A stretch of 64,000 nucleotides of DNA from an uncultured bacterium (GTDB taxonomy: Bacteria > Patescibacteriota > Minisyncoccia > UBA6257 > 2-01-FULL-56-20). The notes under the pieces were generated by a model that made no database searches, had not been told where the DNA came from, and was given only the letters and a program-made list of their open reading frames with translations. Below, in pieces: positions 10,782 to 63,234 of this stretch. Every line of letters starts with the position of its first letter. The first letter of the stretch is position 1. The position numbers and the translations under genes are program-made. The DNA lies in the NCBI GenBank assembly GCA_963707865.1, contig OY970175.1:16748-80747 (forward strand), given 5' to 3'.

Positions 10782-10809
10782 TTTTTAATGTGTATTGTGG
10801 TAGTATATT
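10782..10809 (+). promoter_or_regulatory. promoter-like box TTTTTAATG-N13-TATATT (cassette promoter family, copy A)
   Basis: AGTTTTTAATGTGTATTGTGGTAGTATATTC ~22 nt upstream of the ATG at 10831; same box upstream of three other accessory units. Confidence 0.45.
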
Positions 10810-10830
10810 CGCACGGAACCGTTAGGCTTA

Positions 10831-11418
10831 ATGACCAAAATCATGGATGCGATAATTTCAATCCTCGTCTTTTTTGGAATCACTGCGGATAAATATCCGT
10901 TCGTGGCGTTGTTTGTGCTCTTGGGAACTTTGACTGTGGCGATAGGGTTCTGGCAAAACCAGAAAATAGATGGACTCGAGGTTAAGTTTGGGGCTGTGTT
11001 AGACGACGTGAGAGCCAGTGCGGGCAAAATTAAGAATAACATTATCGCTATAAAGACCTTTCTTGCTACAAAATGGCCGGAGGATTTCAATTTGTCGCTG
11101 ATGGAATCTATGAGTCCGTTGCGGATCAAGCCAAAGGGATTGGAAATCTTACAGCAAAGTGGATTCGTGAGCGTTATGGAGAATGCGGAATACCGCCGGA
11201 AGATATTATCTTATATTTCCGATCAGGAGCCGAAGACAAAATTAGACGTGGAAAGAAATGCTATTATTTATTTCCCTATGCTGCTGGAAGAAACATTCAC
11301 GCGGCCGATAAGCTCATATCTGTACAAGTTTCCCACAAAAAGAGAGGCATGCATGACGCTCGCGGCGCTCTATGTCCGCGACGAATACCTCAAAGAACAC
11401 CCAGAGATTACGGAATAA
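10831..11418 (+). CDS. hypothetical protein (N-terminal TM helix), AT-rich accessory gene
   Basis: 195 aa; visibly lower GC than flanks; no recognised domain. Confidence 0.4.
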   Translation: MTKIMDAIISILVFFGITADKYPFVALFVLLGTLTVAIGFWQNQKIDGLEVKFGAVLDDVRASAGKIKNNIIAIKTFLATKWPEDFNLSLMESMSPLRIKPKGLEILQQSGFVSVMENAEYRRKILSYISDQEPKTKLDVERNAIIYFPMLLEETFTRPISSYLYKFPTKREACMTLAALYVRDEYLKEHPEITE

Positions 11419-11421
11419 CGG

Positions 11422-13401
11422 TTACAGGTGATAGATGAAGATTGAGGTGCCGGCGCGGTAGTCGGGCGAGGGGACGCTGCCCATGCCCGGGGCGGGCGGC
11501 CTCAAAACCGTGAGCCACGAATAGGTGTCGGAGGCGTTGCGGACTTGGCCGGGAGCGAGCGGCTGGATCGCGCCCTCAAGCGTGTTTACGGAAACAGCGA
11601 GCCAGTGGATGCCGTGGTCTACGGGATTGCCTTTGGAGGAAGACCAGTCAACTTCTTTGTTCCCTAGATAATAGTGCGGATTTCCGCCGCCGAAATAATC
11701 CACGGCGATCTTGTCCACATCGGGATGCGTGGCGACCCACGCCTGGAGTCGCAGGAGGTCTTGCCCCCAGTCGTAGTTGGAATCGGTCACATAGTGATAT
11801 CCGTTCCAAATGCCGCCGCCGAGTTCATTGAAGTACGACAGGAAATATGGAGCGGCGAAGAGGGTTTCCAAAAGGAGCCAGATAAGCAGGACGACGAGAA
11901 AAAAATATTTGATGCTCGCGCGCACGAAAGATTTCGCCGCGGCGCTTAGGGAAGCAGCGATGGATGTGCCGAGCGAAGCCATGGTGGCGCCGCCCGGGGG
12001 CGAAATGCGGAAAGAGATATTTACAATCCATTTTTTCCAGACGCCTGCGGCAAGGATATAAATGAAAGGAAGCGTGGGCATGAGGTGGCGAAGCCCGATG
12101 TTCAACGGACTTTGCATGCTGTAGCCCCAATAGAGCACGATGAACGACGCCATGGAGAATTCCGGAAGGTTCACGCCGATGTAATCCAAAATGCGTTGCC
12201 CCCGGCGCCGGCCGAGGTACCTATCGCGTCGGATCATCCACCATGCGGCGAGCACGAGCGCCGTGAGCACGATGACGAGCGTGGGGATGGGTTCTTTGAG
12301 GAGGAAGAGGAGCGGGAAATAGGTCCAACCGCCGGCACCGCGCACTTCGCCCCAGAAATAGATGGTGTTGCCGCCGGCGGACCGCTGGAAGACCATAAGG
12401 ATGCCGAGCATGTATTGTGCGACTGGCCGCAGCACTGGATTTTTTGCCATCCAGAGGTCAATGTCGGCGAGGCAGCGCATGCCCGTGCAGTGCGCGCCCG
12501 CGGGCGCCGGGCCGTTTGCGAAAGAACCCAGAATGAACTGCGTATCGGAGGCCTGTTTTGTGATGGGATAATTGACAGTGAAAAGGAAATAGATCGGGTA
12601 GACGATACACACATAGCCGATCGCAAAGATGAGAATAAGGCGCCAGAGCCAACGCAGTCCGCGCATAAGAAACGTTTTGAAACGCCGCGATTGCTCCATT
12701 GTGCCGCGTTCGGCGATGACGTTGCGGAGCCAGAGTACGAAAGCAAGAAAGATGAAAAGCGGCACGAGGAACGGCGTGGAAAATTTTGTGATCTGCGCAA
12801 CACCAAAAGAAAGTCCCGCATACCAAAGGTGTTTTGTGGATGGCGATTCAACGAACTTCAGAAAGAAATAGGTGGCGAAGATGACGCCGAAGGCGGCACC
12901 CACATCCGTCGTCACATAATGACCATGGGCGAGCACGGTGGGATCAAGCGCGAAAAGTGCGGCGGGCAGGAGCGCCCACCAGTTGCCCATAAGTCCCCGT
13001 GCGAGGAGATAAATAAAGAGAACGACAAGGAGCGTGATCAAGATCGGGAAGATGCGCGCGGTTTGGATGATTGCGTTCGCGTCATTGCCCGATTGATAGA
13101 GGAATTGCGCGCCGACGTCCCACTGCGCGTTCACTTGGTTCTTCCATGCGTCGCTTTGAACGGGGAACGTGGGATTTAGAAAAAGCACCGGCAGCATTGC
13201 AAGCGCTTTTATAAGCGGCGGGTGCTCGGGATTCAGCCGGTAGTCAAGATTGTGCACATAGCCGTAGCCCGCCGGAATATGCGCAAGCTCGTCCATAATG
13301 GCCGAGTCGGTGCGCGAGGCCCAGAGCATGAGCGAGAAAGAGGCAAGACAGACGAGGGCGAGCGTCCACCACGCAAGACAAGAAGAAGTTTTCTTGAACA
13401 T
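11422..13401 (-). CDS. GT-C fold glycosyltransferase, PMT/ArnT (GT39/GT83-like) family
   Basis: 659 aa polytopic membrane protein; conserved DELAHIPAGYGY loop-1 motif of dolichyl/undecaprenyl-phosphate sugar transferases. Confidence 0.7.
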   Translation of the reverse strand: MFKKTSSCLAWWTLALVCLASFSLMLWASRTDSAIMDELAHIPAGYGYVHNLDYRLNPEHPPLIKALAMLPVLFLNPTFPVQSDAWKNQVNAQWDVGAQFLYQSGNDANAIIQTARIFPILITLLVVLFIYLLARGLMGNWWALLPAALFALDPTVLAHGHYVTTDVGAAFGVIFATYFFLKFVESPSTKHLWYAGLSFGVAQITKFSTPFLVPLFIFLAFVLWLRNVIAERGTMEQSRRFKTFLMRGLRWLWRLILIFAIGYVCIVYPIYFLFTVNYPITKQASDTQFILGSFANGPAPAGAHCTGMRCLADIDLWMAKNPVLRPVAQYMLGILMVFQRSAGGNTIYFWGEVRGAGGWTYFPLLFLLKEPIPTLVIVLTALVLAAWWMIRRDRYLGRRRGQRILDYIGVNLPEFSMASFIVLYWGYSMQSPLNIGLRHLMPTLPFIYILAAGVWKKWIVNISFRISPPGGATMASLGTSIAASLSAAAKSFVRASIKYFFLVVLLIWLLLETLFAAPYFLSYFNELGGGIWNGYHYVTDSNYDWGQDLLRLQAWVATHPDVDKIAVDYFGGGNPHYYLGNKEVDWSSSKGNPVDHGIHWLAVSVNTLEGAIQPLAPGQVRNASDTYSWLTVLRPPAPGMGSVPSPDYRAGTSIFIYHL

Positions 13402-13412
13402 TGCTTTTATTA

Positions 13413-13447
13413 TAGCGTAGAACCCATCCTATATGTGAGATGGGTTC
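13413..13447. promoter_or_regulatory. conserved 16-nt motif TAGCGTAGAACCCATC plus palindrome (GAACCCATC-N10-GATGGGTTC), copy 1
   Basis: Begins 12 nt after the divergent start codon at 13401; same motif and geometry at 21670. Confidence 0.5.
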
Positions 13448-13473
13448 TAAAGAGATGATGGTACAATACAACT

Positions 13474-15504
13474 ATGCAAGGTACTGTTCCGCCGCCGCGC
13501 AAAGACGAGGAGGTTCGTCCCAGCGACCTCGTGAAAGTTATCAAACAGGAACCTAAGGACGAGGCGTTGGAGAAAAAAAGATCGTTGCCCCGCAAGCCTC
13601 GCTTCCCGAAAGGTATTGCATGGGGGATTGCGGGGCTTGTCGTGCTTTTCGTCGGCGGCTCAATTGCCTCTCTTTACCTCATCCGCGCCAAGGTGGCATC
13701 TTCATTCTCAACGAGCCTCGGGACGCTTCGCTTGGGTGTGGAAGACCTTCAAAATTTTGATCCCCAGTCTGCCGCGCAGAAATTTTCTTCTTTGCAGGAT
13801 CTTTCCTCGGGGGATCTTGGCACTGCCGTGAAAACATTCGGGTCTCTTTTGGGGGGAGGGGGCGGTGCCATCACGTCGCTCGTCGACATTTCCAAACAAC
13901 TCACGCTTTTTGCGCAAGAAGTGAGCGACGTGGCGTCAAGCTCGTACGGGTTTTTTACAAACGGACAGGGAGGGCCTTTCATTGCTGACCTCGGCCGTAT
14001 ACGCGACACGCTAGGTACGATTGATGCCGCAAGCGATCAACTAACGGGCACGGCATCGCTGTTCGGAGGGCTTTCTTCGTTCGGGGGCAACGATTTTTAT
14101 CTTTCGCTCAAAACGCAGATTAAGAGCACGAAGAATATGCTGGACGTTCTTTTGCCCTGGTTCTCCGATCCGCATCCCCATCACTTCCTTGTGCTTTTGG
14201 AAAATCCTTCGGAGATGCGTCCCGCGGGAGGATTTCTCGGAAGCTATGCGGATGTTACGATGACGAGCGGTACCATAACCGACGTCGCCGTGCATGATAT
14301 TGCGGACGTTGACGCGGCATTCAATCGCAACATCATCCCCCCGAAGCCGTTGCAGCTTGAGGTGACAAGATGGCGGCCGGCAGATGCGAACTGGTTTTTT
14401 GATTTTCCGACCTCTGCTTCAAAAACCATCGCTTTTTTTGAGGAATCGGCCCTTTACGCAAATGCTTCCACGACGTTTGACGGCGCCGTTGCGATTTCGC
14501 CGAAGGTAATCGGGGATCTCTTGGCCATCACGGGCCCGATTTCCGTAGGGAGGTCAACGACGACCTTCACGGTGGATAACTTCCTCGTTCAGATTCAAAA
14601 GATCGTCCAAAGCGGCCAGTCATTGTCCGCCACCTATCCCAAGCAGGTCATCGGCGATCTTTCAAAAGCGATTTTCGCGGCGCTTGCCTCTTCTACTACT
14701 ACAGACGGGCATGGCGCACTGCTTGCCATGGTGCTTAATTGGATAACCAATAAAGACGTGATGGTATATTTCAAAGATCCGGCGATGGAAGCCGTTGCGG
14801 ACGCGAACGGCGCTTCGGGCGCGGTCTATGCGTTGCCGCAGAAATTCAACGGCGATTACCTCGCAGTCGTGGATGCGAACGTAAACGGCGGGAAATCGGA
14901 CTTATATGTCTCAAGCACGATCGCCTATACCGCACAAATCAATCCGGACGGTACGATGACAGGGCACCTTGTCGTAGCGCGGAAGCACAATGGCAACAAA
15001 AGCCCGTATTCGTGGTATCGGGCGACGAATCAGGATTACGTGCAGATCTTCGTTCCAGAGGGCACGACGCTCGCGAATGTTTCCGGTACCGTTTTGAAAA
15101 AAATTACGCCGCCGATCAACTATGCAAAAAAGGGCTACATAACCGACCCCGCTGTTTCTACAATTGAGTCAACGGAGCAGACCCTCTTCGCGTATCCGGG
15201 CATCGCGTGGCACGAAGAGTCCGGGAAGCAGGTGTTTACGACGTGGTCTGTCGTGAAGGCAGGGGCTTCCACGCAATTCTCACTTGACTACACGCACCCC
15301 ATGTCCGTTCCTCCCGCGGAGGGCGTGACATACCAGTTTGTTTTTGAAAAACAGGCGGGCACGCATCGGTCATATGAATATGACATTGACGCGCCGCTTG
15401 GCTATGTCTTTGTTGAAAACGGCGGCCTCGCGACATATTTGTATCAGTCCGACGATCCGCCCGGGCGGCTCATCTTCAATTTGACGTTGCAGAAACTTCA
15501 GTAG
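13474..15504 (+). CDS. membrane-anchored extracytoplasmic protein (DUF4012-like)
   Basis: 676 aa; basic N-terminus, one TM helix, large Gly/Ser/Thr-rich ectodomain; divergent from the GT39 gene. Confidence 0.45.
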   Translation: MQGTVPPPRKDEEVRPSDLVKVIKQEPKDEALEKKRSLPRKPRFPKGIAWGIAGLVVLFVGGSIASLYLIRAKVASSFSTSLGTLRLGVEDLQNFDPQSAAQKFSSLQDLSSGDLGTAVKTFGSLLGGGGGAITSLVDISKQLTLFAQEVSDVASSSYGFFTNGQGGPFIADLGRIRDTLGTIDAASDQLTGTASLFGGLSSFGGNDFYLSLKTQIKSTKNMLDVLLPWFSDPHPHHFLVLLENPSEMRPAGGFLGSYADVTMTSGTITDVAVHDIADVDAAFNRNIIPPKPLQLEVTRWRPADANWFFDFPTSASKTIAFFEESALYANASTTFDGAVAISPKVIGDLLAITGPISVGRSTTTFTVDNFLVQIQKIVQSGQSLSATYPKQVIGDLSKAIFAALASSTTTDGHGALLAMVLNWITNKDVMVYFKDPAMEAVADANGASGAVYALPQKFNGDYLAVVDANVNGGKSDLYVSSTIAYTAQINPDGTMTGHLVVARKHNGNKSPYSWYRATNQDYVQIFVPEGTTLANVSGTVLKKITPPINYAKKGYITDPAVSTIESTEQTLFAYPGIAWHEESGKQVFTTWSVVKAGASTQFSLDYTHPMSVPPAEGVTYQFVFEKQAGTHRSYEYDIDAPLGYVFVENGGLATYLYQSDDPPGRLIFNLTLQKLQ

Positions 15505-15514
15505 GAAAACCGCG

Positions 15515-15595
15515 ATGGAGAATCTCACGCGCACAAGAAATTTCGTCATTATCGCCCATATTGATATCGCACGTTGCGACAACGCAACGGCATGA
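15515..15595 (+). other. remnant or duplicated 5' fragment of lepA (MENLTRTRNFVIIAHIDI...) with CGTTGCG-ACAA-CGCAACG hairpin
   Basis: 26-codon ORF whose codons 9-18 repeat the authentic lepA N-terminus (RNFVIIAHID) with synonymous changes; ends at the lepA start. Confidence 0.5.
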
Positions 15596-15599
15596 ATCT

Positions 15600-17429
15600 A
15601 TGAATAATATTCGAAACTTTGTTATCATCGCCCACATTGATTCGGGGAAGTCCACGCTTGCAGATCGTTTTTTGGAGATCACGGGAACGGTGCCCATGCG
15701 CTCTATGCGCGCGCAGTATTTGGACCGCCTGCCCTTGGAGCGCGAGCGGGGGATCACGATCAAGATGGCGCCGGTGCGGATGGCATATAGCGTGGACGGC
15801 AAGGAATATATTTTGAATCTGATCGACACGCCGGGACACTCGGATTTTTCGTATGAGGTTTCTCGCGCGCTCGCGGCGGTGGAGGGGGCGATACTTTTGA
15901 TTGACGGCACAAGAGGGATCCAGGCGCAGACGCTGTCCAATTTGCGCGCGGCGCAGAAAGCGGGGCTCACGATTATCCCCGCCGTGAACAAGATTGATCT
16001 CGCACTGCCGCAGATTGAAAGGGTGGTGGAATCGGTCGTCGAACTTTTGCACATGCCGAAGGAGAGCGTGCACCGAGTTTCCGCAAAGACCGGCGAAGGC
16101 GTGAGGGAATTATTGGACACGGTAGTGCGGGAAGTGCCGCCCCCTCGCGACGTTCCCGCGGATGCAAAATCCTCTCTGAACGCAAATCGCGGCGGTGGTG
16201 CCCATGACGCCGGAAAAGCTCTTATCTTTGATTCGCTCTATGATGATCACAAGGGCATCATTGCTTTCATACGCGTGTTCGGCGGCGAGTTCAAAACCGA
16301 GAACATGCGGTTTATGGCAACGGGCGTTGCGTTCAAACCGAAGGAAGTGGGCTATTTCACGCCGGACCCCGTGGCGTCGCCTGCGATCGTAAACGGCGAG
16401 ATCGGCTATCTTGCGACAGGACTCAAGGAACCGTCGCGCGTGAAAATCGGAGATACGGTGCTTGCGACCCACCACGGAGGAGGAGAAGTCGGCGCGGATG
16501 CGTTGCCCGGCTATCGGGAACCGGCACCAGTCGTATTCATTTCGTTCTACCCCGACCACGATACGAAGTTTGACGACCTCAAACGCGCGTTTGAGAAGCT
16601 GCGCTTGAATGACGCAGCGTTTTCCTTTGAGCCTGACGCGAACGAGGCGCTCGGCCGCGGCCTTAAAGTCGGTTTTCTTGGACAGCTTCACTTTGAGATC
16701 ACCGCGAGCCGCTTGGAACGGGAATATAACCTGCAATTTTTAACGAGTTTTCCTACGATTGCGTACCGCGTACAGGATCGCGGCGTGGTGCGCGTGATCA
16801 AGCAACCGCAGGATTTTCCGGACAAGCCGGAGAAAGTGTGGGAACCCTTTGTTCGTTTGGAAATCCTCACGCCGCAGAAATATTTAAGTGCGGTCGTCAA
16901 CTTGCAGACCGTATTTGATATTGAGATCGCGCAAGTAAAGAACATCGGCGAAAATCTTTTGATAGAAGCGAAGATGCCTTTGCGTGAGTTGATCCGCGAT
17001 TTTGATGACCGGTTAAAATCGTCATCGCAAGGATATGCATCGTTCACCTACGAGCTTGCCGGGGAGCAGGAAGCAGAGGTGGAAAAATTGGAAATTTTAG
17101 TTGTGGACGAAGTGGTGCCCGCGCTCACGCGCATCGTTCCCAAAAAAGATCTTGAGCGCGAGGGGAGGCAGACCGTGGAGCGGCTGAAGGAACTTTTGCC
17201 GAAGGAGCAGTTTGCGCAGGCGATCCAAGCAAAGGCACTTGGCCGCATCATCGCGCGCGAAACGATCCCGGCAATGAAAAAGTTGTTGGGCAATTTCGGG
17301 AAGACCGGCGGCGACCGCACGCGGAAGATGAAGCTATGGAAAAAGCAGAAACGCGGGAAGGAGAAACTCGCCGGCATGGCCCGGGTGGAGCTCACGCCGG
17401 AGGTGTTTCGCGAGATACTGAAAAAGTAG
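15600..17429 (+). CDS. lepA: elongation factor 4 (LepA)
   Basis: G1 motif AHIDSGKST, DTPGHSDF, C-terminal LepA domain; start trimmed to MNNIRNF. Confidence 0.9.
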   Translation: MNNIRNFVIIAHIDSGKSTLADRFLEITGTVPMRSMRAQYLDRLPLERERGITIKMAPVRMAYSVDGKEYILNLIDTPGHSDFSYEVSRALAAVEGAILLIDGTRGIQAQTLSNLRAAQKAGLTIIPAVNKIDLALPQIERVVESVVELLHMPKESVHRVSAKTGEGVRELLDTVVREVPPPRDVPADAKSSLNANRGGGAHDAGKALIFDSLYDDHKGIIAFIRVFGGEFKTENMRFMATGVAFKPKEVGYFTPDPVASPAIVNGEIGYLATGLKEPSRVKIGDTVLATHHGGGEVGADALPGYREPAPVVFISFYPDHDTKFDDLKRAFEKLRLNDAAFSFEPDANEALGRGLKVGFLGQLHFEITASRLEREYNLQFLTSFPTIAYRVQDRGVVRVIKQPQDFPDKPEKVWEPFVRLEILTPQKYLSAVVNLQTVFDIEIAQVKNIGENLLIEAKMPLRELIRDFDDRLKSSSQGYASFTYELAGEQEAEVEKLEILVVDEVVPALTRIVPKKDLEREGRQTVERLKELLPKEQFAQAIQAKALGRIIARETIPAMKKLLGNFGKTGGDRTRKMKLWKKQKRGKEKLAGMARVELTPEVFREILKK

Positions 17430-17483
17430 CACAAGACGGCACGCCGTCTTGTGCGTTTCTTTTTGAGAATCTAAACTGAAGCT

Positions 17484-17774
17484 ATGAAGATTGTAGGAGC
17501 AGCTATTCTCTTTGTTATTCTTGTTTTGGTGGGAGCGCGAGTGTATTCGTTTTTCGCGCAGGAAAAGCAATTAAGCGCGGACCTTGCGGACATTCAGGCA
17601 CGGCTTACAAAGGCGCAATACGACGAGGTAAGTTTGCAATCGGAGGTGCAATACCTCGCAAATCCGCTCAACTTGGAGAAAGAGCTCCGCGCGCGGTTCA
17701 ACTACAAAAAACCCGGCGAGACGATGATTATTATCGTACCCGCGCAAAGTTCCACGGCGACGACCACAGATTAA
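17484..17774 (+). CDS. FtsB/DivIC-like septum formation initiator
   Basis: N-terminal TM helix, coiled coil, C-terminal NYKKPGETMIIIV matching the FtsB/DivIC family. Confidence 0.55.
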   Translation: MKIVGAAILFVILVLVGARVYSFFAQEKQLSADLADIQARLTKAQYDEVSLQSEVQYLANPLNLEKELRARFNYKKPGETMIIIVPAQSSTATTTD

Positions 17775-17800
17775 AAAAAGATTAAAGAACCTTTGACGAA

Positions 17801-18169
17801 ATGATTGCGACGGCTACCATAAATTCCATGGGGCACATGACACTTGAAAAGCTGGCGCTCATGATGGGAGCCGAATTCAAAAATATTGATCAGCGTTTTG
17901 AGGGGGTGTACGAGGAAATCGGCCGCTTGGGCCGCCGCATGGAGGCAGGTTTTCAAACCATGCGGGCGGAGATGAGCGATATAAGAAGCGATATTTTCGC
18001 ACTGAAGGAAGATATGAAAGAAGTTAAGGAGGATATTGGGATGATGAAGAAGGATATCGAGACGATGAAGGAGGATACAGACGTTCTCAAAAAAGAATCG
18101 CAGATTCACCATGCGGAACTTGCCGGTCTCGATGGCCGGGTGGTGCGTCTTGAAAAAGGAGTTATATGA
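17801..18169 (+). CDS. coiled-coil hypothetical protein
   Basis: 122 aa, heptad-rich EDMKEVKEDIGMMKKDIETMKED; 4-nt overlap with pcm start. Confidence 0.35.
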   Translation: MIATATINSMGHMTLEKLALMMGAEFKNIDQRFEGVYEEIGRLGRRMEAGFQTMRAEMSDIRSDIFALKEDMKEVKEDIGMMKKDIETMKEDTDVLKKESQIHHAELAGLDGRVVRLEKGVI

Positions 18170-18807
18170 AGGTTGATGCCGAAGAACTTATACGCGATTT
18201 GATCGCGGAAGGATATTTGAAAACGTCCACGCTCGTGAGCGCGTTCCGGGCGATCGACCGCAAGGATTTCGTGTTGCCGGAATACGCCGGGGAGGCGTAC
18301 GGGAATTATCCGTTGCCGATCGGGTTCGGACAGACGATTTCCCAGCCGCTTACGGTCGCATTCATGCTGGAGCTCCTCGCTCCGCGCGCAGGAGAAAAAA
18401 TTTTGGACATCGGCTCGGGCTCTGGGTGGCAAACCGCCCTTTTGGCGCATGTGGTGAGCGGGGGAGGAAATGCGCATGGCCGCGTGACGGCGATGGAGCG
18501 GATTTCCGAACTCAAAGCGATGACCGAGCGCAACGTGGAGAAATACGGTTTCGTAACGCGCGGCATCGTGCGGGCGGTACTTGGCGACGGTTCAAAAGGA
18601 TATGCCGCGGGCGCGCCGTACGACAAGATCATTGCCGCGGCGGCGGGGGGAGAAATTCCTGCTGCGTGGAGAGAACAACTCCGGCCGGGCGGGAGGATCG
18701 TAGCGCCAGTAAGGGAGAGTGTCGTTGCTATGGATAAAACCAAAAAAGGAGATTTCAAAATACGGGAATATCACGGTTTCAGCTTTGTGCCGCTCGTGGA
18801 AGATTAA
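18166..18807 (+). CDS. pcm: protein-L-isoaspartate O-methyltransferase
   Basis: GQTISQP substrate motif and LDIGSGSGWQTA SAM-binding motif. Confidence 0.85.
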   Translation: MKVDAEELIRDLIAEGYLKTSTLVSAFRAIDRKDFVLPEYAGEAYGNYPLPIGFGQTISQPLTVAFMLELLAPRAGEKILDIGSGSGWQTALLAHVVSGGGNAHGRVTAMERISELKAMTERNVEKYGFVTRGIVRAVLGDGSKGYAAGAPYDKIIAAAAGGEIPAAWREQLRPGGRIVAPVRESVVAMDKTKKGDFKIREYHGFSFVPLVED

Positions 18808-18858
18808 TTTGCGCTGACCGTTGAACCCCGCCGAGCGCGGTGGTACAATGCCTGTGTC

Positions 18859-18929
18859 GCGGGTGTAGTACAGTGGCAGTACGGTAGCTTCCCAAGCTAT
18901 AGACGAGGGTTCGATTCCCTTCACCCGCT
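18859..18929 (+). tRNA. tRNA-Gly (anticodon CCC)
   Basis: Hand-folded cloverleaf: acceptor GCGGGTG/CACCCGC, D arm GTAC-AGTGGCA-GTAC, anticodon loop TTCCCAA, T arm GAGGG-TTCGATT-CCCTT; CCA not encoded. Confidence 0.8.
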
Positions 18930-18991
18930 CAATAAGAATGGAAAGGTGTTACCATTAAAGTAAGCTGCGTGATATCCCGAGGAAACAAACA

Positions 18992-20080
18992 ATGAGCGAG
19001 AGACCAGAAATTTATGTTCCCAGCGTTGCTCGCTTTCCTGACGATCTCAGAGCAAGGTACGATTTGTTGGAGCCCGCGCGGGAAAAGGGATACAAAACGG
19101 GCCTTATGTTGGTGTTGCGGCAGGGCGATTTTTCTGCAGAAGAAACGAAAAAACAGTTGGGTAATCTAGATCCTTATGTTAAGCTCGGCGGCGCAGAACG
19201 ACCAGCCGTCTTTGCTATGCATCCTAACATGCCATTGGAAGGGAAAGAGCGATTGAATCTGCTCGATAATCCCGGCTTTTCTCGGGAATATATCGAGCAA
19301 GGGATAGAACTAGCCGCTCGCATACCCGACGAGCTATCTTCCGAACAGGGTCGCGCGATCAGTTTTCACCTCAATACGTTGATAAAGCCCCAACAGTGGA
19401 CATCAGATAAAGAATATTGGGCAGAGGCCTTTGCGGGGGTGCTGGACACCGTAAGGAAGATAACAACATTCGGTAAAGAGCACGGCGTGAAGGTGGCCAT
19501 TGAAACGGTCCCAATTCCAGAATTTGGCGACATTAAAAAGAGTCCAAAATCGCTTCTGGGCGATGGTCATACTTACTGGGCCGATCTGGGCAATCCCTGG
19601 CCGCTGTTATTTTGGCGAGATGAAATTGCCAAGGTGAGGGCTGCCGGTTCCGGATTGGCCATAGATATTTGTCACTCGTTTGTCGCTTTACGGGCGGTGC
19701 ACGAGATCGGCCGTCTGATCAAATCGGGCAAGAAAAATGATGCTTTATCAACGTATATGGTACATGAGGACGATGTAAGCAAGGCCCCGCCTATTGGACA
19801 ATTTGGTGAGACGGTGATAGGCAATACTCAGCGTGGCGATATTTGGCATATGAATGATGCAAAAAGCGCTTATGCTACGCCACGACTCCATGGTGATGAG
19901 AAATACTTCGAAGAAGGTATCGCTTTGTTCGACGGAGACATTCCGGCGGATATTTTAAGGAAATTAATACGAGCTGGCTTGGAAAAGCAAATTAAATTTG
20001 TGTTAGAGATTAATGAAAAAGATTTTAAAAACAATCCGAGTACCAAAAAATCGTTGGATTTTGTTCTGCGAGAAAGTTAA
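18992..20080 (+). CDS. xylose-isomerase-like TIM-barrel protein (sugar phosphate isomerase/epimerase family)
   Basis: 362 aa with VAIETVP and AIDICHSF strand motifs; AT-richer than neighbours; directly downstream of tRNA-Gly. Confidence 0.4.
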   Translation: MSERPEIYVPSVARFPDDLRARYDLLEPAREKGYKTGLMLVLRQGDFSAEETKKQLGNLDPYVKLGGAERPAVFAMHPNMPLEGKERLNLLDNPGFSREYIEQGIELAARIPDELSSEQGRAISFHLNTLIKPQQWTSDKEYWAEAFAGVLDTVRKITTFGKEHGVKVAIETVPIPEFGDIKKSPKSLLGDGHTYWADLGNPWPLLFWRDEIAKVRAAGSGLAIDICHSFVALRAVHEIGRLIKSGKKNDALSTYMVHEDDVSKAPPIGQFGETVIGNTQRGDIWHMNDAKSAYATPRLHGDEKYFEEGIALFDGDIPADILRKLIRAGLEKQIKFVLEINEKDFKNNPSTKKSLDFVLRES

Positions 20081-20961: not shown

Positions 20962-21658
20962 AAAGTTTTTCCAATACGTCTTTGGTGAGAGCTTCGTCGG
21001 GTGGGCCGAAGCAGAGCTCAGACGTGTGGAGACAAAGCACTTTCGTAGCGTACTGGTACACGACGTTAAGGTCGTGCGAGACGAGGATGGTTGTCATGTC
21101 GTATTGGTCCTGAAGGCGGTGGACGAGTTCATAAACCTGCTCTTCGCCGGACTCGTCAATGCTCGCAGTCGGTTCGTCAAGCAGCAGCACGCTCGGCTTG
21201 CCCAGCCGCGCTTCGTCGTGCGAAGTGGTGCTCGGCAAGCCAAGGAGTGCGAATGCAATAAGCGCGCGCTGGAACTGTCCGCCCGAAAGGTGCCCCACGG
21301 GCGTTTCAAGTATTTTTTTTGTGAGACCGACGGCATCCGCGACGGCGCTCGCTTCGGCTTTCGCGAGACGGAGCGTCGCCGATTTAGCCGCGAGAAGATT
21401 GTGGAAGTTGATGGGGAGGTGGCGGTCGGCGTCTATTTTTTGCGGCACATAGCCGATCCGCGTGCCGGGGGCCCACGCAACCGTGCCGCGGTAGGGAATC
21501 ATGCCGAGGAGCGCGCGCAAAAGGACGCTCTTACCCGCGCCATTGGGACCGATAACCGCAAGCGCATCCCCCTTGTCAAGTGTAAAATTGATACTCTGCA
21601 ACGCGGTTCTTCCGCCCAATACTACGTTCAGATCGGAAACGGTAAGCGCATCTGCCAT
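20909..21658 (-). CDS. metal ABC transporter ATP-binding protein with His-rich C-terminal tail
   Basis: Walker A GPNGAGKS, signature LSGGQFQRA, Walker B LLLDEP; tail HKYFHHFHHLHDPH. Confidence 0.85.
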   Translation of the reverse strand: MADALTVSDLNVVLGGRTALQSINFTLDKGDALAVIGPNGAGKSVLLRALLGMIPYRGTVAWAPGTRIGYVPQKIDADRHLPINFHNLLAAKSATLRLAKAEASAVADAVGLTKKILETPVGHLSGGQFQRALIAFALLGLPSTTSHDEARLGKPSVLLLDEPTASIDESGEEQVYELVHRLQDQYDMTTILVSHDLNVVYQYATKVLCLHTSELCFGPPDEALTKDVLEKLYGPHKYFHHFHHLHDPH

Positions 21659-55693: not shown

Positions 55694-56143
55694 CTACGAA
55701 GAATCCGGGCGGCGGATGAGTCTCACGATGGAGATACCGATAGACACTCCCATCGTTACCCCAGACGAAACGTTACCTGTCAGGGCACCGTAGGAGTATG
55801 TCCAAAAGCAAGTAAAGAGGAGGCAGGAATTACAGATGGTGCGTTCCAGTCCCTCCGCTGTGAGGCGTTCCCAAAACAACGCCGCTCCGCCAACCAACAT
55901 GGCCACCCAAGGAGCGACACATTTTGGTTGAATTATCGATCCTATTATAACAGCGAAGAGGGCGACGCTCCCAAGGGCCAAGAGAAATCCAATAATTACG
56001 TCCTCAATGAAGTAAGGTCCCTTTTCGTGCCACCACTGTTTCGGCGATTGTGGGAATAATCGTTTCAGCAGTCGTTTCGCGCGCAGATACCCGATTAACA
56101 AAGAGCGTCGGATGCGCCATCCTATTCTAATCATTTGGTGCAT
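55694..56143 (-). CDS. hypothetical membrane protein
   Basis: 149 aa with 3-4 hydrophobic helices. Confidence 0.3.
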   Translation of the reverse strand: MHQMIRIGWRIRRSLLIGYLRAKRLLKRLFPQSPKQWWHEKGPYFIEDVIIGFLLALGSVALFAVIIGSIIQPKCVAPWVAMLVGGAALFWERLTAEGLERTICNSCLLFTCFWTYSYGALTGNVSSGVTMGVSIGISIVRLIRRPDSS

Positions 56144-56203: not shown

Positions 56204-57319
56204 CTATCGTACCGCTTGGAGATAGGCAATGAGTGAATTCCACGCGTCGTGAACGGCGGGGAAGAGTGCGATTGTGGTGTAAATAAAGAGGATGAGGAGG
56301 ATCAGCGTAAGGAACCCGCTTTCGTGATGGTGATAGTAGTAGCCGTTGCGGGAATAGCAGTGGGCGTTGTGGATGAGATGCCGGAAGGGGAGCGAGACAA
56401 GCCAGAAGAGGGCGATGATAAATACGATGGAAACCCAGAGTGGATGGCCAACGCCTAAAGCATGTCCGAAGACCGTGCCGTGGAAAACGAGCGACCAGAG
56501 CGCGATGACAAAGAGTACGAAGAGTGCAACGCTCACGATCGTTCCGACGAGCGCGCCGAACCAGCCGCACGCGCCGCATCCGCGATGCTCCGCGCGTGCT
56601 TCCTCGCGCCGCATGTCCCGGTCCCTTCGCCGTTCCTTCCGCCACGCGTGCCGCTTCGCGCGCATCTCGTACTTCCACGCGCGCATTTTTTGTTTCCATT
56701 CCTGCTTGCTTTTGCTCGGATCGGGTTGGTATTTTTCGTATTCCACCCGCGCTCGGTCAATGAAATCCTGCGCGGTGAGCGGCGGTTCGCCATGTGCCTG
56801 CGCGATCTCATCTTCCGTGTGCGCGATGGGCATCACGAGCGTGAGGACAATATATGCGACGATCCAACCCCCGCCTGTAAATATAGTGAGCAGCACAAAA
56901 AGCACGCGGACGAGCGTAACGTCAATATTGAAATACGCCGCAAGGCCGGTGCAGACACCCTTCAACATCGATCCTTCAAAGATGCGATAGAGCCGCTTCG
57001 GCGCTGCGGATTTTTTTTGAGCGCCGGATGCAGCTGCACCTGCGTCCGTATCCGCGCCCGCCCGCGCTCCCTCCACGGGCCCCATCTTCGCGATGATCTC
57101 TTCCACCTCTTTTTCCGTGACTACGTTTTTCCCGCCGCGCAAATAGCTGTCGCACTTGTCCGCGATCGCCTGTTCAAAGTCCGCCATGATCTCGTCCTTG
57201 TCCGGATTATCTCTGAGTGTCGTAGCGGCGTGATCCAAATATTTTCGCAAGGCATCGTAGCCCGCTTCCTCCAACTGGTACGCCCTGCCGTTCAGATTGA
57301 TGGTGATAACTTTATTCAT
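56204..57319 (-). CDS. PspC-domain stress-response membrane protein
   Basis: PspC domain RLYRIFEGSMLKGVCTGLAAYFNIDVTLVRVLFVLL; basic cytoplasmic loop; additional TM helices; start trimmed to MNKVITINL. Confidence 0.7.
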   Translation of the reverse strand: MNKVITINLNGRAYQLEEAGYDALRKYLDHAATTLRDNPDKDEIMADFEQAIADKCDSYLRGGKNVVTEKEVEEIIAKMGPVEGARAGADTDAGAAASGAQKKSAAPKRLYRIFEGSMLKGVCTGLAAYFNIDVTLVRVLFVLLTIFTGGGWIVAYIVLTLVMPIAHTEDEIAQAHGEPPLTAQDFIDRARVEYEKYQPDPSKSKQEWKQKMRAWKYEMRAKRHAWRKERRRDRDMRREEARAEHRGCGACGWFGALVGTIVSVALFVLFVIALWSLVFHGTVFGHALGVGHPLWVSIVFIIALFWLVSLPFRHLIHNAHCYSRNGYYYHHHESGFLTLILLILFIYTTIALFPAVHDAWNSLIAYLQAVR

Positions 57320-57678
57320 ATTCTTGTTTTGATTTGTTTTGTTCCGACTTTTTTGATGAATTTGTCCAGGATTTCCCAATATGCTTCCAATTCCTCAAGC
57401 TGCTCCTTGCCTCCGTCCGTGAGGCGATAATATTTCCGCGGCGGGCCTGCGGCGGACTCCACCCATTCATAGTCCACGCTCCCCTCACGCCGGAGCTCGC
57501 TCAAAAGGGGATAGAGCGTGCCCTCCTGCGTTTCAAATTCGGTGTCCACGAGGATCTGCAGAATATCCGCGGCGTAGACCTTGTGCGCCCCGATGATCTT
57601 TAAAACCACGAGCTCAAGAAGGCCCTTCCGTATCGGGGTGAATTTGTCCTTTGCTTTAGGCGCCTTTTCTGTGGGCAT
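57316..57678 (-). CDS. PadR-family transcriptional regulator
   Basis: Winged-helix motif LVVLKIIGAHKVYAADILQ...GTLYPLLSELRREG; stop overlaps the pspC start. Confidence 0.8.
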   Translation of the reverse strand: MPTEKAPKAKDKFTPIRKGLLELVVLKIIGAHKVYAADILQILVDTEFETQEGTLYPLLSELRREGSVDYEWVESAAGPPRKYYRLTDGGKEQLEELEAYWEILDKFIKKVGTKQIKTRI

Positions 57679-57712: not shown

Positions 57713-57764
57713 GGTACCGCCTGTGGATAACAAAATATGTTATACTCAACCCTACAACTAAACA

Positions 57765-57918
57765 GTTTATCTTGAGCGTGGCGAGGGAACTGGCCCAATG
57801 ACCCACCGACAACCCCCGGCAAGGCGCAATTGCGCGGCGACGAAAGGGTGTCACATCCAGCCCGCAAGGGAAAGATAAAGGTCGCAATGCTTTTCTTTGG
57901 GGAAGGGCATTTTTTATT
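57765..57918 (+). promoter_or_regulatory. SAM-I (S-box) riboswitch with terminator-type expression platform
   Basis: TTATCTTGAGCGTGGCGAGGGAACTGGCCCAATGACCCACCGACAACC ... GAAAGATAAAGG matches the S-box P1/P2/kink-turn/P3 consensus; followed by hairpin and T7 run; upstream of metK. Confidence 0.8.
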
Positions 57919-57999: not shown

Positions 58000-58998
58000 A
58001 TGAGCACAATTATAAAAACCGCGGAGTTCGTTTCGCCGAAGCATCCGGACAAGGCCTGCGACCAGATTGCGGACGCGCTTCTTGACGCTTATCTTGCGGG
58101 CGACAAAGCGGGGGGGCCGCGAAGCCGCGTGGCGGTGGAGGTGATGGGCGGGCACGGACACATCACGATCTCGGGCGAGGTCACGAGCGCGACCGAGGTG
58201 GACATTCCCATGGTGGTGAAGAGAATCGTGGGTCAGGAATACGAAGTTCATCCGTACCTTACGAGGCAAAGCCCGCAGATCGCGCAGGGCGTGGACACGG
58301 GTGGCGCAGGAGACCAGGGGATCATGATGGGCTATGCCACGCGCGAAACGGAAAATTTCATGCCGGTTGAATACGAACTCGCGCGGAAACTGTGCCGCGC
58401 GATCTACGAAAAATATCCGTACGACGGGAAAACGCAGGTGACGGTGGAATGGCCGAGCGGTACGGGGAACGGAACGCCAAAAGTGCGCACGGTCGTCGCA
58501 AGTTTCCAGAACACAAAGAATGCGGAACTCCTCGCGCTTGCACAGAAGGCGATGCAGGAATTCGGGTACGACGCCCAAGAATATCTGATAAATCCGGCAG
58601 GCGAGTGGACGCTTGGGAGCTTTGATGCGGATTCGGGACTCTCCGGCAGGAAGATCGTGATAGACAACTATGGCCCGGAGGTCGGCGTGGGCGGCGGCTC
58701 ATTTTCGGGAAAAGATTACACAAAAGTGGACCGGTCGGGCGCGTACATGACGCGGCGGATCGCAGTGGATTATTTGAAGAACCATCCGGAGGCAAAGACC
58801 GCGCGCGCGAAGCTCGCCTACGCGATCGGGAAAGCGGAACCCGTGATGGCGGTCATAGAAGTGAATGGCGAAGAGTTCCCGATAGAAGGATACGACCTCA
58901 CGCCAAAAGGAATTTTCACGTTTCTGAAATTGAGCGAGGTGAAATGGTTAGAGACGGCCGCGTGGGGCCACTTCGGAAGGGAGTTCAGCTGGGGATAG
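58000..58998 (+). CDS. metK: S-adenosylmethionine synthetase (compact, 332 aa)
   Basis: GHPDK, GAGDQG, GGGSFSGKD, DRSGAY and AWGHFGR motifs. Confidence 0.85.
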   Translation: MSTIIKTAEFVSPKHPDKACDQIADALLDAYLAGDKAGGPRSRVAVEVMGGHGHITISGEVTSATEVDIPMVVKRIVGQEYEVHPYLTRQSPQIAQGVDTGGAGDQGIMMGYATRETENFMPVEYELARKLCRAIYEKYPYDGKTQVTVEWPSGTGNGTPKVRTVVASFQNTKNAELLALAQKAMQEFGYDAQEYLINPAGEWTLGSFDADSGLSGRKIVIDNYGPEVGVGGGSFSGKDYTKVDRSGAYMTRRIAVDYLKNHPEAKTARAKLAYAIGKAEPVMAVIEVNGEEFPIEGYDLTPKGIFTFLKLSEVKWLETAAWGHFGREFSWG

Positions 58999-61099: not shown

Positions 61100-61825
61100 A
61101 TGTCTCGCAAATCCGGGCGCAAAAAGAAGCTCGCTATTTTTGACATTGACGGGACGATCTTCCGGTCCAGCCTGCTCATTGAACTTGTGGACGCGCTGAT
61201 CCACGAGGGGATCTTCAAGCCGAGCGCGATGCGGATCTACGAGCGGGATAAACGCGCATGGCTTGACCGGAAGGGGGACTACGACGCCTATATTAAAAGT
61301 GTCGTGAGGGCGTTCCTCAAAAATATCAAAGGCGTGCCGTATGTCCGCTTCGCGCGCGTGGCAAAAAAGGTGGTCGCGCTCCACAAGAACCGCGTGTACC
61401 GTTATACGCGCGATCTCGTTCACGCTTTGCGGCGCAAGGGATATTGGCTCGTCGCAATTTCGCACTCGCCGCGCGGGATCGTGGGGCCGTTCGCCGCACA
61501 GATGGGATTTCATAAAGTGTACGGGTTGCTGTACGAGCTTAGCCCCACGGGGCGGTTCAACGGGAAGGTGATGTTTGAGGATCTTATTTTTGACAAGGCG
61601 AAGATCGTGGCACGCGTGCTTGCAAAAGAAGATGTCACGCTTCGCGGGTCCGTGGGCGTGGGGGATACGGAGGGCGACATTCCTTTTTTAAAGCTCGTCA
61701 CCCGGGCGATCTGCTTCAATCCGAACGGGAAGCTCTACCGCGCGGCGCGCCGCCGCGGCTGGGAGGTCATCGTGGAGCGGAAGGATGTGGTGTACCGGAT
61801 TCAACAATCTTATGGAAAAGCTTGA
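61100..61825 (+). CDS. HAD-superfamily hydrolase (HAD-IB, phosphoserine-phosphatase-like)
   Basis: Motif I LAIFDIDGTI, motif II and motif III (GDTEGDIPFL). Confidence 0.65.
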   Translation: MSRKSGRKKKLAIFDIDGTIFRSSLLIELVDALIHEGIFKPSAMRIYERDKRAWLDRKGDYDAYIKSVVRAFLKNIKGVPYVRFARVAKKVVALHKNRVYRYTRDLVHALRRKGYWLVAISHSPRGIVGPFAAQMGFHKVYGLLYELSPTGRFNGKVMFEDLIFDKAKIVARVLAKEDVTLRGSVGVGDTEGDIPFLKLVTRAICFNPNGKLYRAARRRGWEVIVERKDVVYRIQQSYGKA

Positions 61826-62972
61826 AGCAAAAGACCGCGTCTTCACGATCGGCGAATATATAGAGATCCTGAACACGTTCTTCAAGGCGCAGGCGGCGAG
61901 GATCACGGGGGAGGTCTCGGAACTGAAACGCGCGGCATCGGGCCACGTGTATTTCACGATCAAAGGCAAGGGTGACGGCGGCGTGAACGACGGCGGCGTT
62001 TTGGATTGCATCATCTGGAACCGCAACTACGACCTTTGCGGGGTCACGCTTGAAGTGGGCATGGAAGTGATCCTTTCGGGGCACCCGAACATTTACGCGC
62101 CGAACGGACGATTGTCGTTTATCGCGGACACGGTGGAGCTCGTGGGCGAAGGGGCGCTTAAAAAGGCATACGACGCGCTCCGCAAAAAATTGGAAGCCGA
62201 GGGGGTATTCGCGCCAGAGCGGAAACGGCCGCTTCCGGAATATCCGACGAAGATCGGCGTCGTCACGTCCATGAAGGGCGCCGTTATCCATGATTTTCTG
62301 AACAACCTCGGGAAGTTCGGGTTCAAGGTGCGCGCGGCGGATTCGCGCGTGGAGGGCCAGGCAGCGGTCGTGCCTCTTTTGAAAGCGCTTGCCGTTATGC
62401 GGAAGGAAGCGCTCGCGGGGCGGCTTGACGTGCTCGTCCTGATCCGCGGCGGCGGCTCGCTTGAATCGTTGCAGGCGTTCAATAATGAAAAGCTTGTGCG
62501 CGAGATCGTGGATTTCCCGGTGCCGGTCATCGCAGGGATCGGGCATGACAAAGACGTGCCCTTGGCCGCGCTTGCGGCGGACTTTATGGCATCCACCCCG
62601 ACCGCGACGGCGCATCTTTTGAGCGCGCCGTGGGAAGAGGCGTACGCGAAGGTGAGGGAAGTCGCGTATCTTTTTTCCCGGATAGAATCGCGGTTTGAAC
62701 GGATCCGCGCGGACATGGATACCGCCTGGAGCACTGTTTTGGACCGCACGGCGCAGGGGATTGAACACGTGAGGGAAACGCTCACGAACGCGGAGCGATT
62801 ACTGCGGCTCCACGATCCGCGCAGGCCCTTGCGACTCGGCTATGCGATCGTGCGGAAGGATGATGTGGGACGGACGGGGAAATTGGTGCGGAGCGTGCGG
62901 GACGTCACCGCCGGAGATGTTTTGAACACGGAACTTGCGGACGGGGTGGTGAGGTCAAGGGTGGAGGAGTGA
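61812..62972 (+). CDS. xseA: exodeoxyribonuclease VII large subunit
   Basis: N-terminal OB fold (VSELKRAASGHVYFTIKG), catalytic region GIGHDKDVPLAALAADFMASTPTA. Confidence 0.8.
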   Translation: MEKLEAKDRVFTIGEYIEILNTFFKAQAARITGEVSELKRAASGHVYFTIKGKGDGGVNDGGVLDCIIWNRNYDLCGVTLEVGMEVILSGHPNIYAPNGRLSFIADTVELVGEGALKKAYDALRKKLEAEGVFAPERKRPLPEYPTKIGVVTSMKGAVIHDFLNNLGKFGFKVRAADSRVEGQAAVVPLLKALAVMRKEALAGRLDVLVLIRGGGSLESLQAFNNEKLVREIVDFPVPVIAGIGHDKDVPLAALAADFMASTPTATAHLLSAPWEEAYAKVREVAYLFSRIESRFERIRADMDTAWSTVLDRTAQGIEHVRETLTNAERLLRLHDPRRPLRLGYAIVRKDDVGRTGKLVRSVRDVTAGDVLNTELADGVVRSRVEE

Positions 62973-63196
62973 TGATTTTTTAGACGTTTACTTAAATAAA
63001 AACGGACCCCTTGCGGGGTCCTCGGGTGCCTAATGGCAATAGTACTGTCATTATAGTTGAGGACTTTGAATATCGTTTGAGCATGGAAAAAGTTCATTAA
63101 AATCAGAAATCCGCCCGTGAGGGCGGATTTCGATCAAAAACGAGTAAGCCAAATGCTTACTTGGTTATTGTAGCAAAACAGTTGGCTTCGTCAGGT

Positions 63197-63234
63197 GTTT
63201 TTTAATGATTTTTTAATCTCTGTCATGCTATAAT
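63197..63234 (+). promoter_or_regulatory. promoter-like box TTTTTTAATG ... TTTTTTAATC-N10-TATAAT (copy D)
   Basis: GTGTTTTTTAATGATTTTTTAATCTCTGTCATGCTATAATAATCG; drives no ORF. Confidence 0.45.

Follow-up and report, generated by a model that had tools for sequence, protein, structure and literature searches.

In Campylobacter jejuni, according to PMC3847290, sigma-70 promoters have no -35 element; before their gnTAnaAT -10 they carry a periodic signal with centres at -17, -27 and -38. A promoter-like module of comparable geometry is described here from a 64,000-nucleotide stretch of DNA (the window) of an uncultured bacterium of the lineage Patescibacteriota; Minisyncoccia; UBA6257; 2-01-FULL-56-20 (GenBank assembly GCA_963707865.1, contig OY970175.1, positions 16,748 to 80,747 of the forward strand). 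The module is a tandem repeat of a T-rich 7-mer that stands shortly before a -10 hexamer, without a -35 element. Two other systems have elements in a similar place: in the E. coli pho box two 7-bp repeats recur every 11 bp and lie 10 bp before the -10, and the middle promoters of phage T4 combine a MotA box at -30 with a sigma-70 -10 and need the phage proteins MotA and AsiA. In the Patescibacteria (candidate phyla radiation), which are uncultured and have tiny genomes and few regulators, promoters and regulation are almost uncharacterised by experiment, and a text search of the literature for promoter or transcription-start work on Patescibacteria returned nothing that named them. The module is a variant of known promoter architectures in a lineage whose promoters are essentially uncharacterised.

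A preliminary description of the window had reported four promoter-like boxes, and all four were found exactly where it had placed them (modules A to D, Table 1). The tandem repeat, the use of the module in both directions, three extra copies (E, F and G), the paralogy of two downstream genes and a small-RNA family are added here. Loci of relatives were fetched through homologs of RpoD, XseA and ORF195, the last being encoded behind module A. The close clade comprised L036 and L039, which belong to one 888-kb genome (RpoD 96% and XseA 80% identical to those of the window), L037 (RpoD 96%), L040 (XseA 83%), L099 (XseA 79%) and L003, a GTDB metagenome-assembled genome with the rpoD-hicB-alaS layout of the window. 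L038 (RpoD 90%), L098 (XseA 68%) and other Patescibacteria (L004-L006) were used as outgroup.

The repeat TTTTAAT-N4-TTTTAAT, with at most one mismatch, was counted in 171,258 bp of the close clade and in 91,713 bp of outgroup, and expectations were taken from dinucleotide shuffles. The close clade held 22 copies (0.1 expected); the same search returned no copy in the outgroup. Within the window, TTTTTAATG occurs five times (0.86 expected), four of them on the plus strand at 10782, 32832, 33168 and 63199, and TTTTAAT-N8-24-TATAAT was matched five times (0.01 expected). At least eight unrelated gene families or RNAs are preceded by the module. A chance likeness of AT-rich sequence among ordinary promoters, which are commonly AT-rich upstream, could have been inflated by the paralogy of the genes behind A and B and by the closeness of B and C, which lie 336 bp apart and may be a local duplication. 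The excess and the variety of families speak against it, as do the retention of the module where its flanks diverge and its absence from the outgroup; chance likeness is refuted as far as sequence statistics can do so and we find it scarcely credible. The likeness between sites claimed in the preliminary description is thus real, although that of A and B comes in part from the paralogous genes. Its figure for B and C, about 90% identity over 30 nt, was a little high: 23 of 27 positions agree (85%) from TTTTTAATG to GCT, and 30 of 37 over the whole module.

The consensus of 16 non-orthologous promoters reads [GTCAA-N6]-TTTTAAT-AAtT-TTTTAAT-(G/C), about 30 bp in length, and its second repeat carries 1.7-2.0 bits per position. 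At A to D the repeats follow one another with an 11-bp period, and the upstream pentamer stands 6 bases before them at A (GTCAA) and D (GTCAG). The gap from the second repeat to the -10 is 10-11 nt at these four sites, given TGgTAGTAT as the -10 of A, and the same gap to a TAnnnT hexamer was found in 14 of the 18 instances first tabulated and in two added later. When the -10 is set at -12 to -7, the repeats fall at -29 to -23 and -40 to -34 and GTCAA at -51 to -47; their centres, at about -26, -37 and -49, lie on one face of the helix, and the position of a -35 element falls inside the 4-nt spacer between the repeats. On inspection by hand no -35 was present, the hexamer 17 nt upstream of the -10 being ATAACT at B (3/6 matches to TTGACA) and ATAATT at C and in the consensus (2/6). 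The preliminary description had likewise judged the spacing too short for a -35/-10 pair. Site A was not listed in a sigma-70 scan of window positions 1-20000, a scan that the stretches of B, C and D lie outside.

Table 1. Coordinates in the window of the modules and of the units behind them.
Feature	Position	Strand	Repeat part	Elements and remarks
Module A	10762-10809	+	10772-10789	GTCAA 10762-10766; TTTTAGT 10772-10778; TTTTAAT 10783-10789; G; 10 nt; extended -10
Module A, -10	TGgTAGTAT 10798-10806; alternative TATATT 10804-10809	+		nhmmer E of module A, 3.5e-4
Module B	32822-32855	+	32822-32839	TTTTAAT 32822-32828; AACT; TTTTAAT 32833-32839; G; tcctctgag; -10 TATAAT 32850-32855
Module C	33158-33191	+	33158-33175	GTTTTAT 33158-33164; AATT; TTTTAAT 33169-33175; G; cgcggtgag; -10 TATAAT 33186-33191
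Module D	63190-63234	+	63200-63217	GTCAG 63190-63194; TTTTAAT 63200-63206; GATT; TTTTAAT 63211-63217; C; 10 nt; extended -10 TGcTATAAT 63226-63234
Module D, leftward face	63167-63194	-		CTGACG (complement of 63189-63194); 16 nt; TGcTACAAT (hexamer, complement of 63167-63172)
Module E, degenerate	63753-63787	-	63770-63787	ATTTTAG 63781-63787; AATG; ATTTAAT 63770-63776; 11 nt; CACAAT 63753-63758; 6 nt; ATG 63744-63746
Module F, degenerate	673-712	+	673-701	between a methyltransferase gene (-) and tmk (+); GTCAA, GTTTAAT, TTTTAAG, TATAAT 3 nt on; nhmmer E 0.23
Module F, opposite face				TTGACT-16-CATCAT
Module G, inverted	17770-17825	-	17770-17799	GTCAA-aggtt-CTTTAAT-CTTT-TTTTAAT on the minus strand
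Module G, plus strand		+		A-tracts; TTGACG 17794-17799; 16 nt; TACCAT 17816-17821; predicted canonical promoter of the 122-aa/PCMT operon
ORF195	10831-11418	+		behind A; membrane-anchored helical protein of a rare family; GC 0.44
ORF99	32854-33153	+		truncated ortholog; 92% identical to residues 1-99 of a 176-179-aa gene of L036/L037
hicB / hicA	33245-33480 / 33485-33721	+		behind C; longest hicB ORF starts at 33181; Pfam HicB_lk_antitox (PF15919) 1.6e-9, HicA_toxin (PF07927) 1.2e-13
143-aa gene	63315-63746	-		behind E; BLASTP to L040_117 1e-14, to L040_141 7e-12
Y-shaped small RNA	63239-63318	+		behind D; 75-80 nt; P1 encloses P2 (GGGAC-UAAC-GUCCC) and P3; linker; intrinsic terminator

A TGn extension precedes the hexamer at A (gTGgTAGTAT), D (aTGcTATAAT), L040-D, L040 PBECR2, L039_113, L039_99, L040 Gp49 and L099 PBECR3; B and C carry GAGTATAAT instead, with GAG and not TGn. 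The preliminary description had proposed an extended -10 or an alternative sigma factor. The former holds in many copies, together with the missing -35, and nothing pointed to the latter, for which the box and TATAAT would form one bipartite site with an unusually short spacer. A bipartite motif with fixed spacing before a subset of genes is in keeping with such a factor, but the downstream element is the housekeeping -10 (TATAAT, often TGnTATAAT), and the module is also found 17 and 28 nt from the -10 and inverted. To our knowledge, 10-11 nt is shorter than any -35/-10 spacing in the sigma-70 family. No second sigma gene was found in about 260 kb of clade and outgroup sequence, where one zf-HC2 anti-sigma-like open reading frame (ORF) occurs in L038, a genome free of the box. 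An alternative sigma factor is, on this evidence, highly improbable.

Start codons lie 5-8 nt past the hexamer at B, E, the L037 copy of B and L040_117, as expected of leaderless mRNAs, which indirectly supports a transcription start 6-8 nt downstream of the hexamer. Many module-driven transcripts would be leaderless, and B would give such an mRNA from ATG 32860 or 32863.

Other promoters of the window are built differently. The tRNA-Gly promoter (TTGAAC-17-TGgTACAAT) and the TTGACA-17/18 promoters at 38580 and 55694-56143(-) have no box, those of tRNA-Pro and of the SAM riboswitch lack the repeats and have an extended -10, and several core operons carry a different motif, of the GATGGGTTCT type. 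Most of the roughly 45 upstream regions examined lacked the repeats, and about 20 kb of core-gene sequence from each of several relatives had no box except at orthologous accessory promoters. The box is found at about 10-15% of promoters, mostly of accessory genes. Because canonical TTGACA-type promoters are present in the same window, the RNA polymerase is expected to read them, and the box marks a subset. The proposal that the box is the general housekeeping form was rejected on the classical -35/-10 pairs at tRNA-Gly, a 70-aa ORF, 38580 and 55694-56143. The box is therefore not the generic form and, as a predicted element, defines a distinct promoter subset; the preliminary description had supposed as much, and the window controls (TTGACA-17/18-TAcAAT or GATGGGTTCT type) and the core genes of the relatives uphold it.

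Several observations were made on these other promoters. The 70-aa hydrophobic ORF (10417-10629, minus strand) has a promoter at 10694-10665 (TTGACA-18-TACAAT) and a strong Shine-Dalgarno sequence, GGAGGAGG; it is divergent from ORF195, occupies the ftsQ|GT39 gap together with it, and matches no family. The motif GATGGGTTCTA(CGC) recurs just upstream of the TAYAAT -10 boxes of core genes (13402-13473, 21659-21780, about 29500-29545 upstream of 29548, and 47937-48033), often as two copies in inverted orientation (AGAACCCATC...GATGGGTTCT) within the gaps between divergent genes, for example between the PMT-like GT39 gene and a DUF4012 gene and between the ABC-3 transporter and histidine kinase genes; an operator role is possible, as is a second class of promoter. 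A TAnAAT hexamer stands 6-7 nt before ATG, without a Shine-Dalgarno sequence, at 11422-13401(-), 13474(+), 20909-21658(-), 21781(+), 57316-57678(-) and 63841(+, xseB), a spacing which suggests that leaderless mRNAs are widespread; in contrast, 10417-10629(-) and 55694-56143(-) have long leaders and strong GGAGG sites.

At orthologous junctions the modules are conserved. B stands at the matching place in L036 (12289-12306) and L037 (8141-8158), and C in L036 (12866), L037 (8718) and L003 (3934). In all of these the box and GAGTATAAT are invariant and the 6 nt between them vary (tcctct, tccggc or tcccgc at B; cgcggt, tgccgt, cacggt or tgcggc at C); the sequence upstream of the box differs in L037 too. 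A pattern of this kind is the classical footprint that a bipartite element leaves in a phylogenetic comparison. D and its small RNA are kept directly after xseA in L040 (box at 11162-11179). More copies were found around xseA/xseB, a variable region, in L039, L040 and L099, where the genes behind them are small hypotheticals, HicB-like, PBECR2 and PBECR3 nuclease-like and NucS-like genes, a Gp49/HTH pair, HIT-xseB and xseB.

Two further elements were noted at these junctions. In L038 an 81-aa ORF, the zf-HC2 one mentioned above (11297-11542, minus strand), lies on the opposite strand and fills the rpoD|alaS gap in place of the hicBA/ORF195 cassettes. A 286-nt non-coding element is 95% identical between L039 (11135-11420) and L040 (9002-9284), genomes whose XseA proteins are each only about 80-83% identical to that of the window. 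It lies on opposite sides of xseA in the two, is immediately followed by a box module and is closed by a long-range stem, CGCTGGAAG...CTTCCAGCG; the window does not contain it, and Rfam returned no match for it up to E = 1.

The window has a GC (guanine plus cytosine) content of 53.7%, and core genes predominate in its Pfam annotation: gatB, miaA, thrS, serS, murI, alr, lepA, dnaG, rpoD, alaS, a ribosomal protein/rpoA block, nrd, valS, xseA and metK (58000-58998), the last behind a SAM-I riboswitch (57764-57881, 53.5 bits) that is kept in L039 and L040. Three cassette regions behind the modules have a GC content of 42-46%. The units there are those that the preliminary description had named: a hypothetical gene, a small ORF, hicBA and a hairpin small RNA with a terminator.

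The ORF195 family numbers 8 clusters in 5.8 billion, and the confidently modelled C-terminal domain of ORF195 has no structural neighbour. One homolog lies on a phage-like contig (L002) behind a TGTGATATAAT promoter and lacks the box; the box does not, then, accompany the family everywhere. ORF195 and ORF99, behind A and B, are paralogous (BLASTP 1e-6). The 3' 227 nt of ORF99 have been deleted in the window genome, and a 276-aa gene still present in L036 has left a remnant of its 3' end just upstream of box B; together these mark the rpoD|alaS region as an eroded, inherited set of cassettes and not a fresh insertion. Behind C, a HicB-like antitoxin domain and a HicA toxin domain are encoded by adjacent genes, as in HicAB toxin-antitoxin (TA) systems. 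A palindrome, CTTTGCaaaggtcGCAAAG, is conserved after the -10 of C (33192-33215, in the hicBA 5' untranslated region) and in L036 and L037; this CTTTGC-N7-GCAAAG element may be a HicB operator or a 5' stem-loop. The nhmmer match of module E, before the 143-aa gene, is weak (E 30) and is backed by strong boxes before the homologs L040_141 and L040_117. The members of this family are predicted to be box-driven and are convergent with Y-shaped small RNAs, and one relative weakly matches Pfam LPD3 (E 5.5e-4, under the cutoff), a domain of the 'polyvalent proteins' of phages and conjugative elements.

Cassettes of this kind might have been placed by recombination, the module being the scar or recognition site of an integron-like or Xer-like system, or else the end of a transposon that carries an outward promoter; its likeness to a promoter would then be secondary. 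In favour of this, one and the same 29-30-bp sequence, with its spacer, stands at the 5' edge of many unrelated small genes in arrays after xseA, Y-shaped small RNAs lie at the 3' ends of some cassettes, and cassette content varies among close relatives. However, no integrase, Xer-type or transposase gene accompanies the arrays, the only transposase of the window (IS481-like, 25174-26193) is free of the box, and the module has neither dyad symmetry nor attC-like R/L cores. The constant 10-11 nt to the -10 and the constant distance to leaderless starts are explained by transcription instead, and in four genomes the cassettes at rpoD|alaS have been inherited stably; a recombination site is very unlikely. 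An integron attC site was rejected separately: no integrase was found in the window or the fetched loci, the cassettes have their own promoters, and the GACTAAC and GTTCGGC of the small RNA do not fit the core RYYYAAC...GTTRRRY. The preliminary description had spoken of mobile or selfish cassettes between conserved genes. They are accessory and their junctions vary, with 0, 1, 2 or 3 cassettes at rpoD|alaS across relatives and an uninterrupted xseA|xseB in L099; current mobility is not borne out, the rpoD|alaS set being vertically inherited and decaying. The IS481-family transposase gene (rve, HTH_28, LZ_Tnp_IS481) lies between DUF11 ORFs at 23729-25225 and 26190-28130. The corresponding place holds a single 1435-aa gene without a Pfam match in L036 and a 1156-aa CLIPPER(PF01345)/PA14 protein in L038, and the insertion may have split a large surface-protein gene.

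A link to phages was sought by pattern scans. Among 2.9 million viral contigs, GTCAA-N6-TTTTAAT-N4-TTTTAAT gave 56 single matches, chiefly from AT-rich phages; the profile hidden Markov model scored none of them. The pattern TTTTAATG-N7-GAGTATAATG had 29 unrelated matches in metagenomes (GC 0.26-0.59), which serve as a chance control only, the true spacer being N6; with the same wrong spacer the B/C pattern had no match in the viral contigs, an uninformative result. The small RNA had no match there either, and nothing in the viral-contig scans ties the module or the small RNA to known phages. In the course of these scans an identical intergenic 29-mer, GTCAAGCATTATTTTAATTATTTTTTAAT, was seen in three dissimilar phage contigs, L057 (1172-1200), L063 (5481-5509) and L050 (1632-1660), with GC of 0.53, 0.42 and 0.33, and near-identical variants in several more; it is not significant with the box profile.

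The module appears to have two faces. GTCAA becomes TTGAC on the opposite strand, so that the module read leftward presents an A-tract followed by a -35. A leftward TTGAC-N16-18-TAnnnT, often with TGn, was found at L040 9876, 11815 and 19025, L039 12295, L003 9944, window D and window 17770; in L003 the ORF195 homolog lies on this face (ATTAAAAAAGCATTAAAAAGCTTTTGACT-16-TACCCT-6-ATG). An A/T-tract in the position of an UP element before the -35 is seen on the A-rich face (window 17770-17825, D leftward, L003 9944 and L040 9876, 11815 and 19025) and not on the T-rich face of A to D. As read from these sequences, the module can act as a back-to-back bidirectional promoter with either face usable. 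The leftward face of D would point at a small hairpin with a U-run (about 63100-63160, minus strand), where an RNAI-like Rfam match at 63102-63182(-) is weak (E 0.04) and under threshold. Copies also stand before the 122-aa/PCMT operon, tmk and xseB, so the module is not strictly confined to selfish genes. The preliminary description had seen the box as carried by selfish cassettes, which is true mainly of small accessory units and not of the inverted or degenerate copies that serve those genes.

Three leftward module promoters sit directly before Y-shaped small RNAs found with a covariance model. The family was recognised from the RNA behind D, which folds into a three-way junction with a terminator (z = -6.7); in L040 the identity is 100% over the body of this RNA, against only 83% for XseA. 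Five members were aligned: window 63239-63318(+), L040 11200-11282(+), 11686-11775(-) and 9755-9838(-), and L039 12163-12256(-). They share a P1 helix around P2 (GGGAC-N4-GUCCC) and P3, an AUCAAAG-like linker and a terminator. Compensatory changes occur in 13 of 26 pairs, and none of 500 shuffles reached the observed covariation score; 93.8% of paired cells can pair, against 30-41% when the partners are slid. The covariance model gives the five members 69-90 bits and found no more in the window and fetched loci, the surroundings of A, B and C included. Rfam 15 held no match at the gathering threshold, the best below it being Atu_C8 (17.9 bits, cutoff 50). Three of the five are convergent with genes of the 143-aa family. 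This is a previously undescribed family of predicted structured RNAs with covariation support.

We favour, with moderate confidence, the reading that the module is a sigma-70 promoter, portable and specific to the clade, whose phased T-tracts take the place of the -35 and which mainly serves accessory cassettes. To open such promoters the ordinary RpoD holoenzyme would rely on the -10 or extended -10, and the T-tracts would stand in for the -35 contact by DNA curvature, by minor-groove contacts of the alpha C-terminal domain type, or by both. In the opposite direction an UP-like A-tract element and a TTGAC -35 would serve, so that the module could fire both ways. It would drive small units of lower GC content: the two phage-linked membrane-protein paralogs (A, B), hicBA (C), the Y-shaped small RNA (D) and the LPD3-like 143-aa gene (E), and in relatives PBECR2/PBECR3 nuclease-like genes, the Gp49/HTH pair and the NucS-like gene.

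Several points weigh against this reading. The 7-mer (TTTTAAT plus G or C) is tighter than curvature or alpha C-terminal domain contacts would demand, and such conservation fits a sequence-specific protein. The UP elements of E. coli occupy -38 to -59, the repeats here -23 to -40. The spacing has outliers (17 nt at L040 xseB, 28 nt at L039 HIT-xseB and 8 nt at L040_141), and L040 NucS has no clear -10. The likeness of A to B and of B to C is partly common descent, through paralogous genes and adjacent units. The scan of the module's own genome covered the window, about 7% of 0.9 Mb, and specificity holds for that share. Finally, both transcription and the protein that reads the repeats are what we infer from sequence alone.

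The repeats could instead be the site of one dedicated DNA-binding protein, bound head-to-tail on one face of the helix, with the boxed genes as a co-regulated accessory regulon; we hold this possible, if somewhat unlikely. Such a protein might activate in the class II manner by touching sigma region 4, like PhoB at pho boxes, or it might lie over the core promoter as a repressor or xenogeneic silencer. Two or three direct 7-bp repeats with a 10-11-bp period, ending 10-11 bp before the -10 with no -35, would suit it, as would a 7-mer near-invariant in 16 unrelated promoters, a functionally coherent set (TA pairs, nuclease-like toxins, phage-linked proteins and a small-RNA family) and the tolerance of 17- and 28-nt distances and of inversion, which activator or silencer sites often show. 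Taken together, the conserved 7-mer, the coherent gene set and the tolerated distances and orientations would fit a dedicated regulator almost as well. Against it, no candidate was found: no response regulator or other conserved transcription factor stands beside the boxes in the window and fetched loci, where the sole two-component gene is an orphan histidine kinase (window 21781-23571), and no response regulator was seen in the window, which is 64 kb of an 899-kb genome. Moreover, letters of the spacer (AAtT, aTTTC) are conserved too, which direct-repeat binders seldom read, and the Epsilonproteobacteria use a similar architecture without a factor. More speculatively, a clade-specific regulator might use the module as its operator and turn all of the accessory genes on or off at once (TA pairs, PBECR nuclease-like toxins and ORF195 proteins), and the LPD3-like 117-143-aa proteins with their convergent Y-shaped small RNAs (three pairs) might form a new RNA-protein conflict or defence module of the Patescibacteria; we think this doubtful.

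Under the promoter reading, accessory conflict-type genes of a reduced genome would use a promoter class of their own, which matters for understanding the expression or silencing of selfish genes and of genes gained by horizontal transfer. An orientation-flexible 30-bp module without a -35 gives a concrete means of predicting the transcription units of the clade, leaderless mRNAs and small RNAs among them, and its analysis has already led to the small-RNA family. It could become a portable promoter part once the organisms or their polymerases can be handled.

The module was finally compared with known systems. With the extended -10 promoters (TGnTATAAT) of E. coli and Gram-positive bacteria it shares independence of a -35 and the TGn, present in A, D and at least six copies of the relatives, but the classical form has no conserved direct repeat between -23 and -51, and the B/C type has GAG in place of TGn. 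The A-rich face has ATTAAAAAATTATTAAAAgaaa immediately upstream of a TTGAC -35, in the position of an UP element, and agrees with the UP consensus at 12 of its 16 specified positions; the T-rich face of A to D lies at -23 to -40, inside the usual -35/spacer region. Like a T4 middle promoter, the module has a box centred near -30 to -26, roughly 11-13 bp before a housekeeping -10, with a dispensable -35; the sites here are inherited parts of the chromosome, and the 2.9 million viral contigs yielded no related module. The geometry of the pho box and of PhoB class II sites recurs, with two 7-bp repeats of 11-bp period about 10 bp before the -10 replacing the -35, but the half-site is TTTTAAT and not CTGTCAT, no response regulator was found here, and the module is sometimes inverted or displaced. 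Unlike an alternative-sigma promoter, it has the consensus TATAAT, and no second sigma gene was found in the window and fetched loci. Unit C alone resembles type II HicAB, with the antitoxin gene first and the genes adjacent; it differs in having the shared module as promoter and not a private operator only. In the Campylobacter and Helicobacter RpoD promoters, as the cited text presents them, the -35 is likewise missing, the -10 is strong and often TG-extended, and T-rich sequence recurs with a 10-11-bp period centred at about -27 and -38, against -26 and -37 here (Petersen 2003, cited in PMC3847290). The periodic geometry of the epsilonproteobacterial type is thus present, whereas its use as the general housekeeping form is not: there it is generic in an AT-rich genome, and here, in an unrelated lineage with 54% GC, a sharp 7-mer coexists with classical promoters. 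By analogy, and as far as that text describes it, the Campylobacter sigma-70 promoter is the closest precedent for the module.

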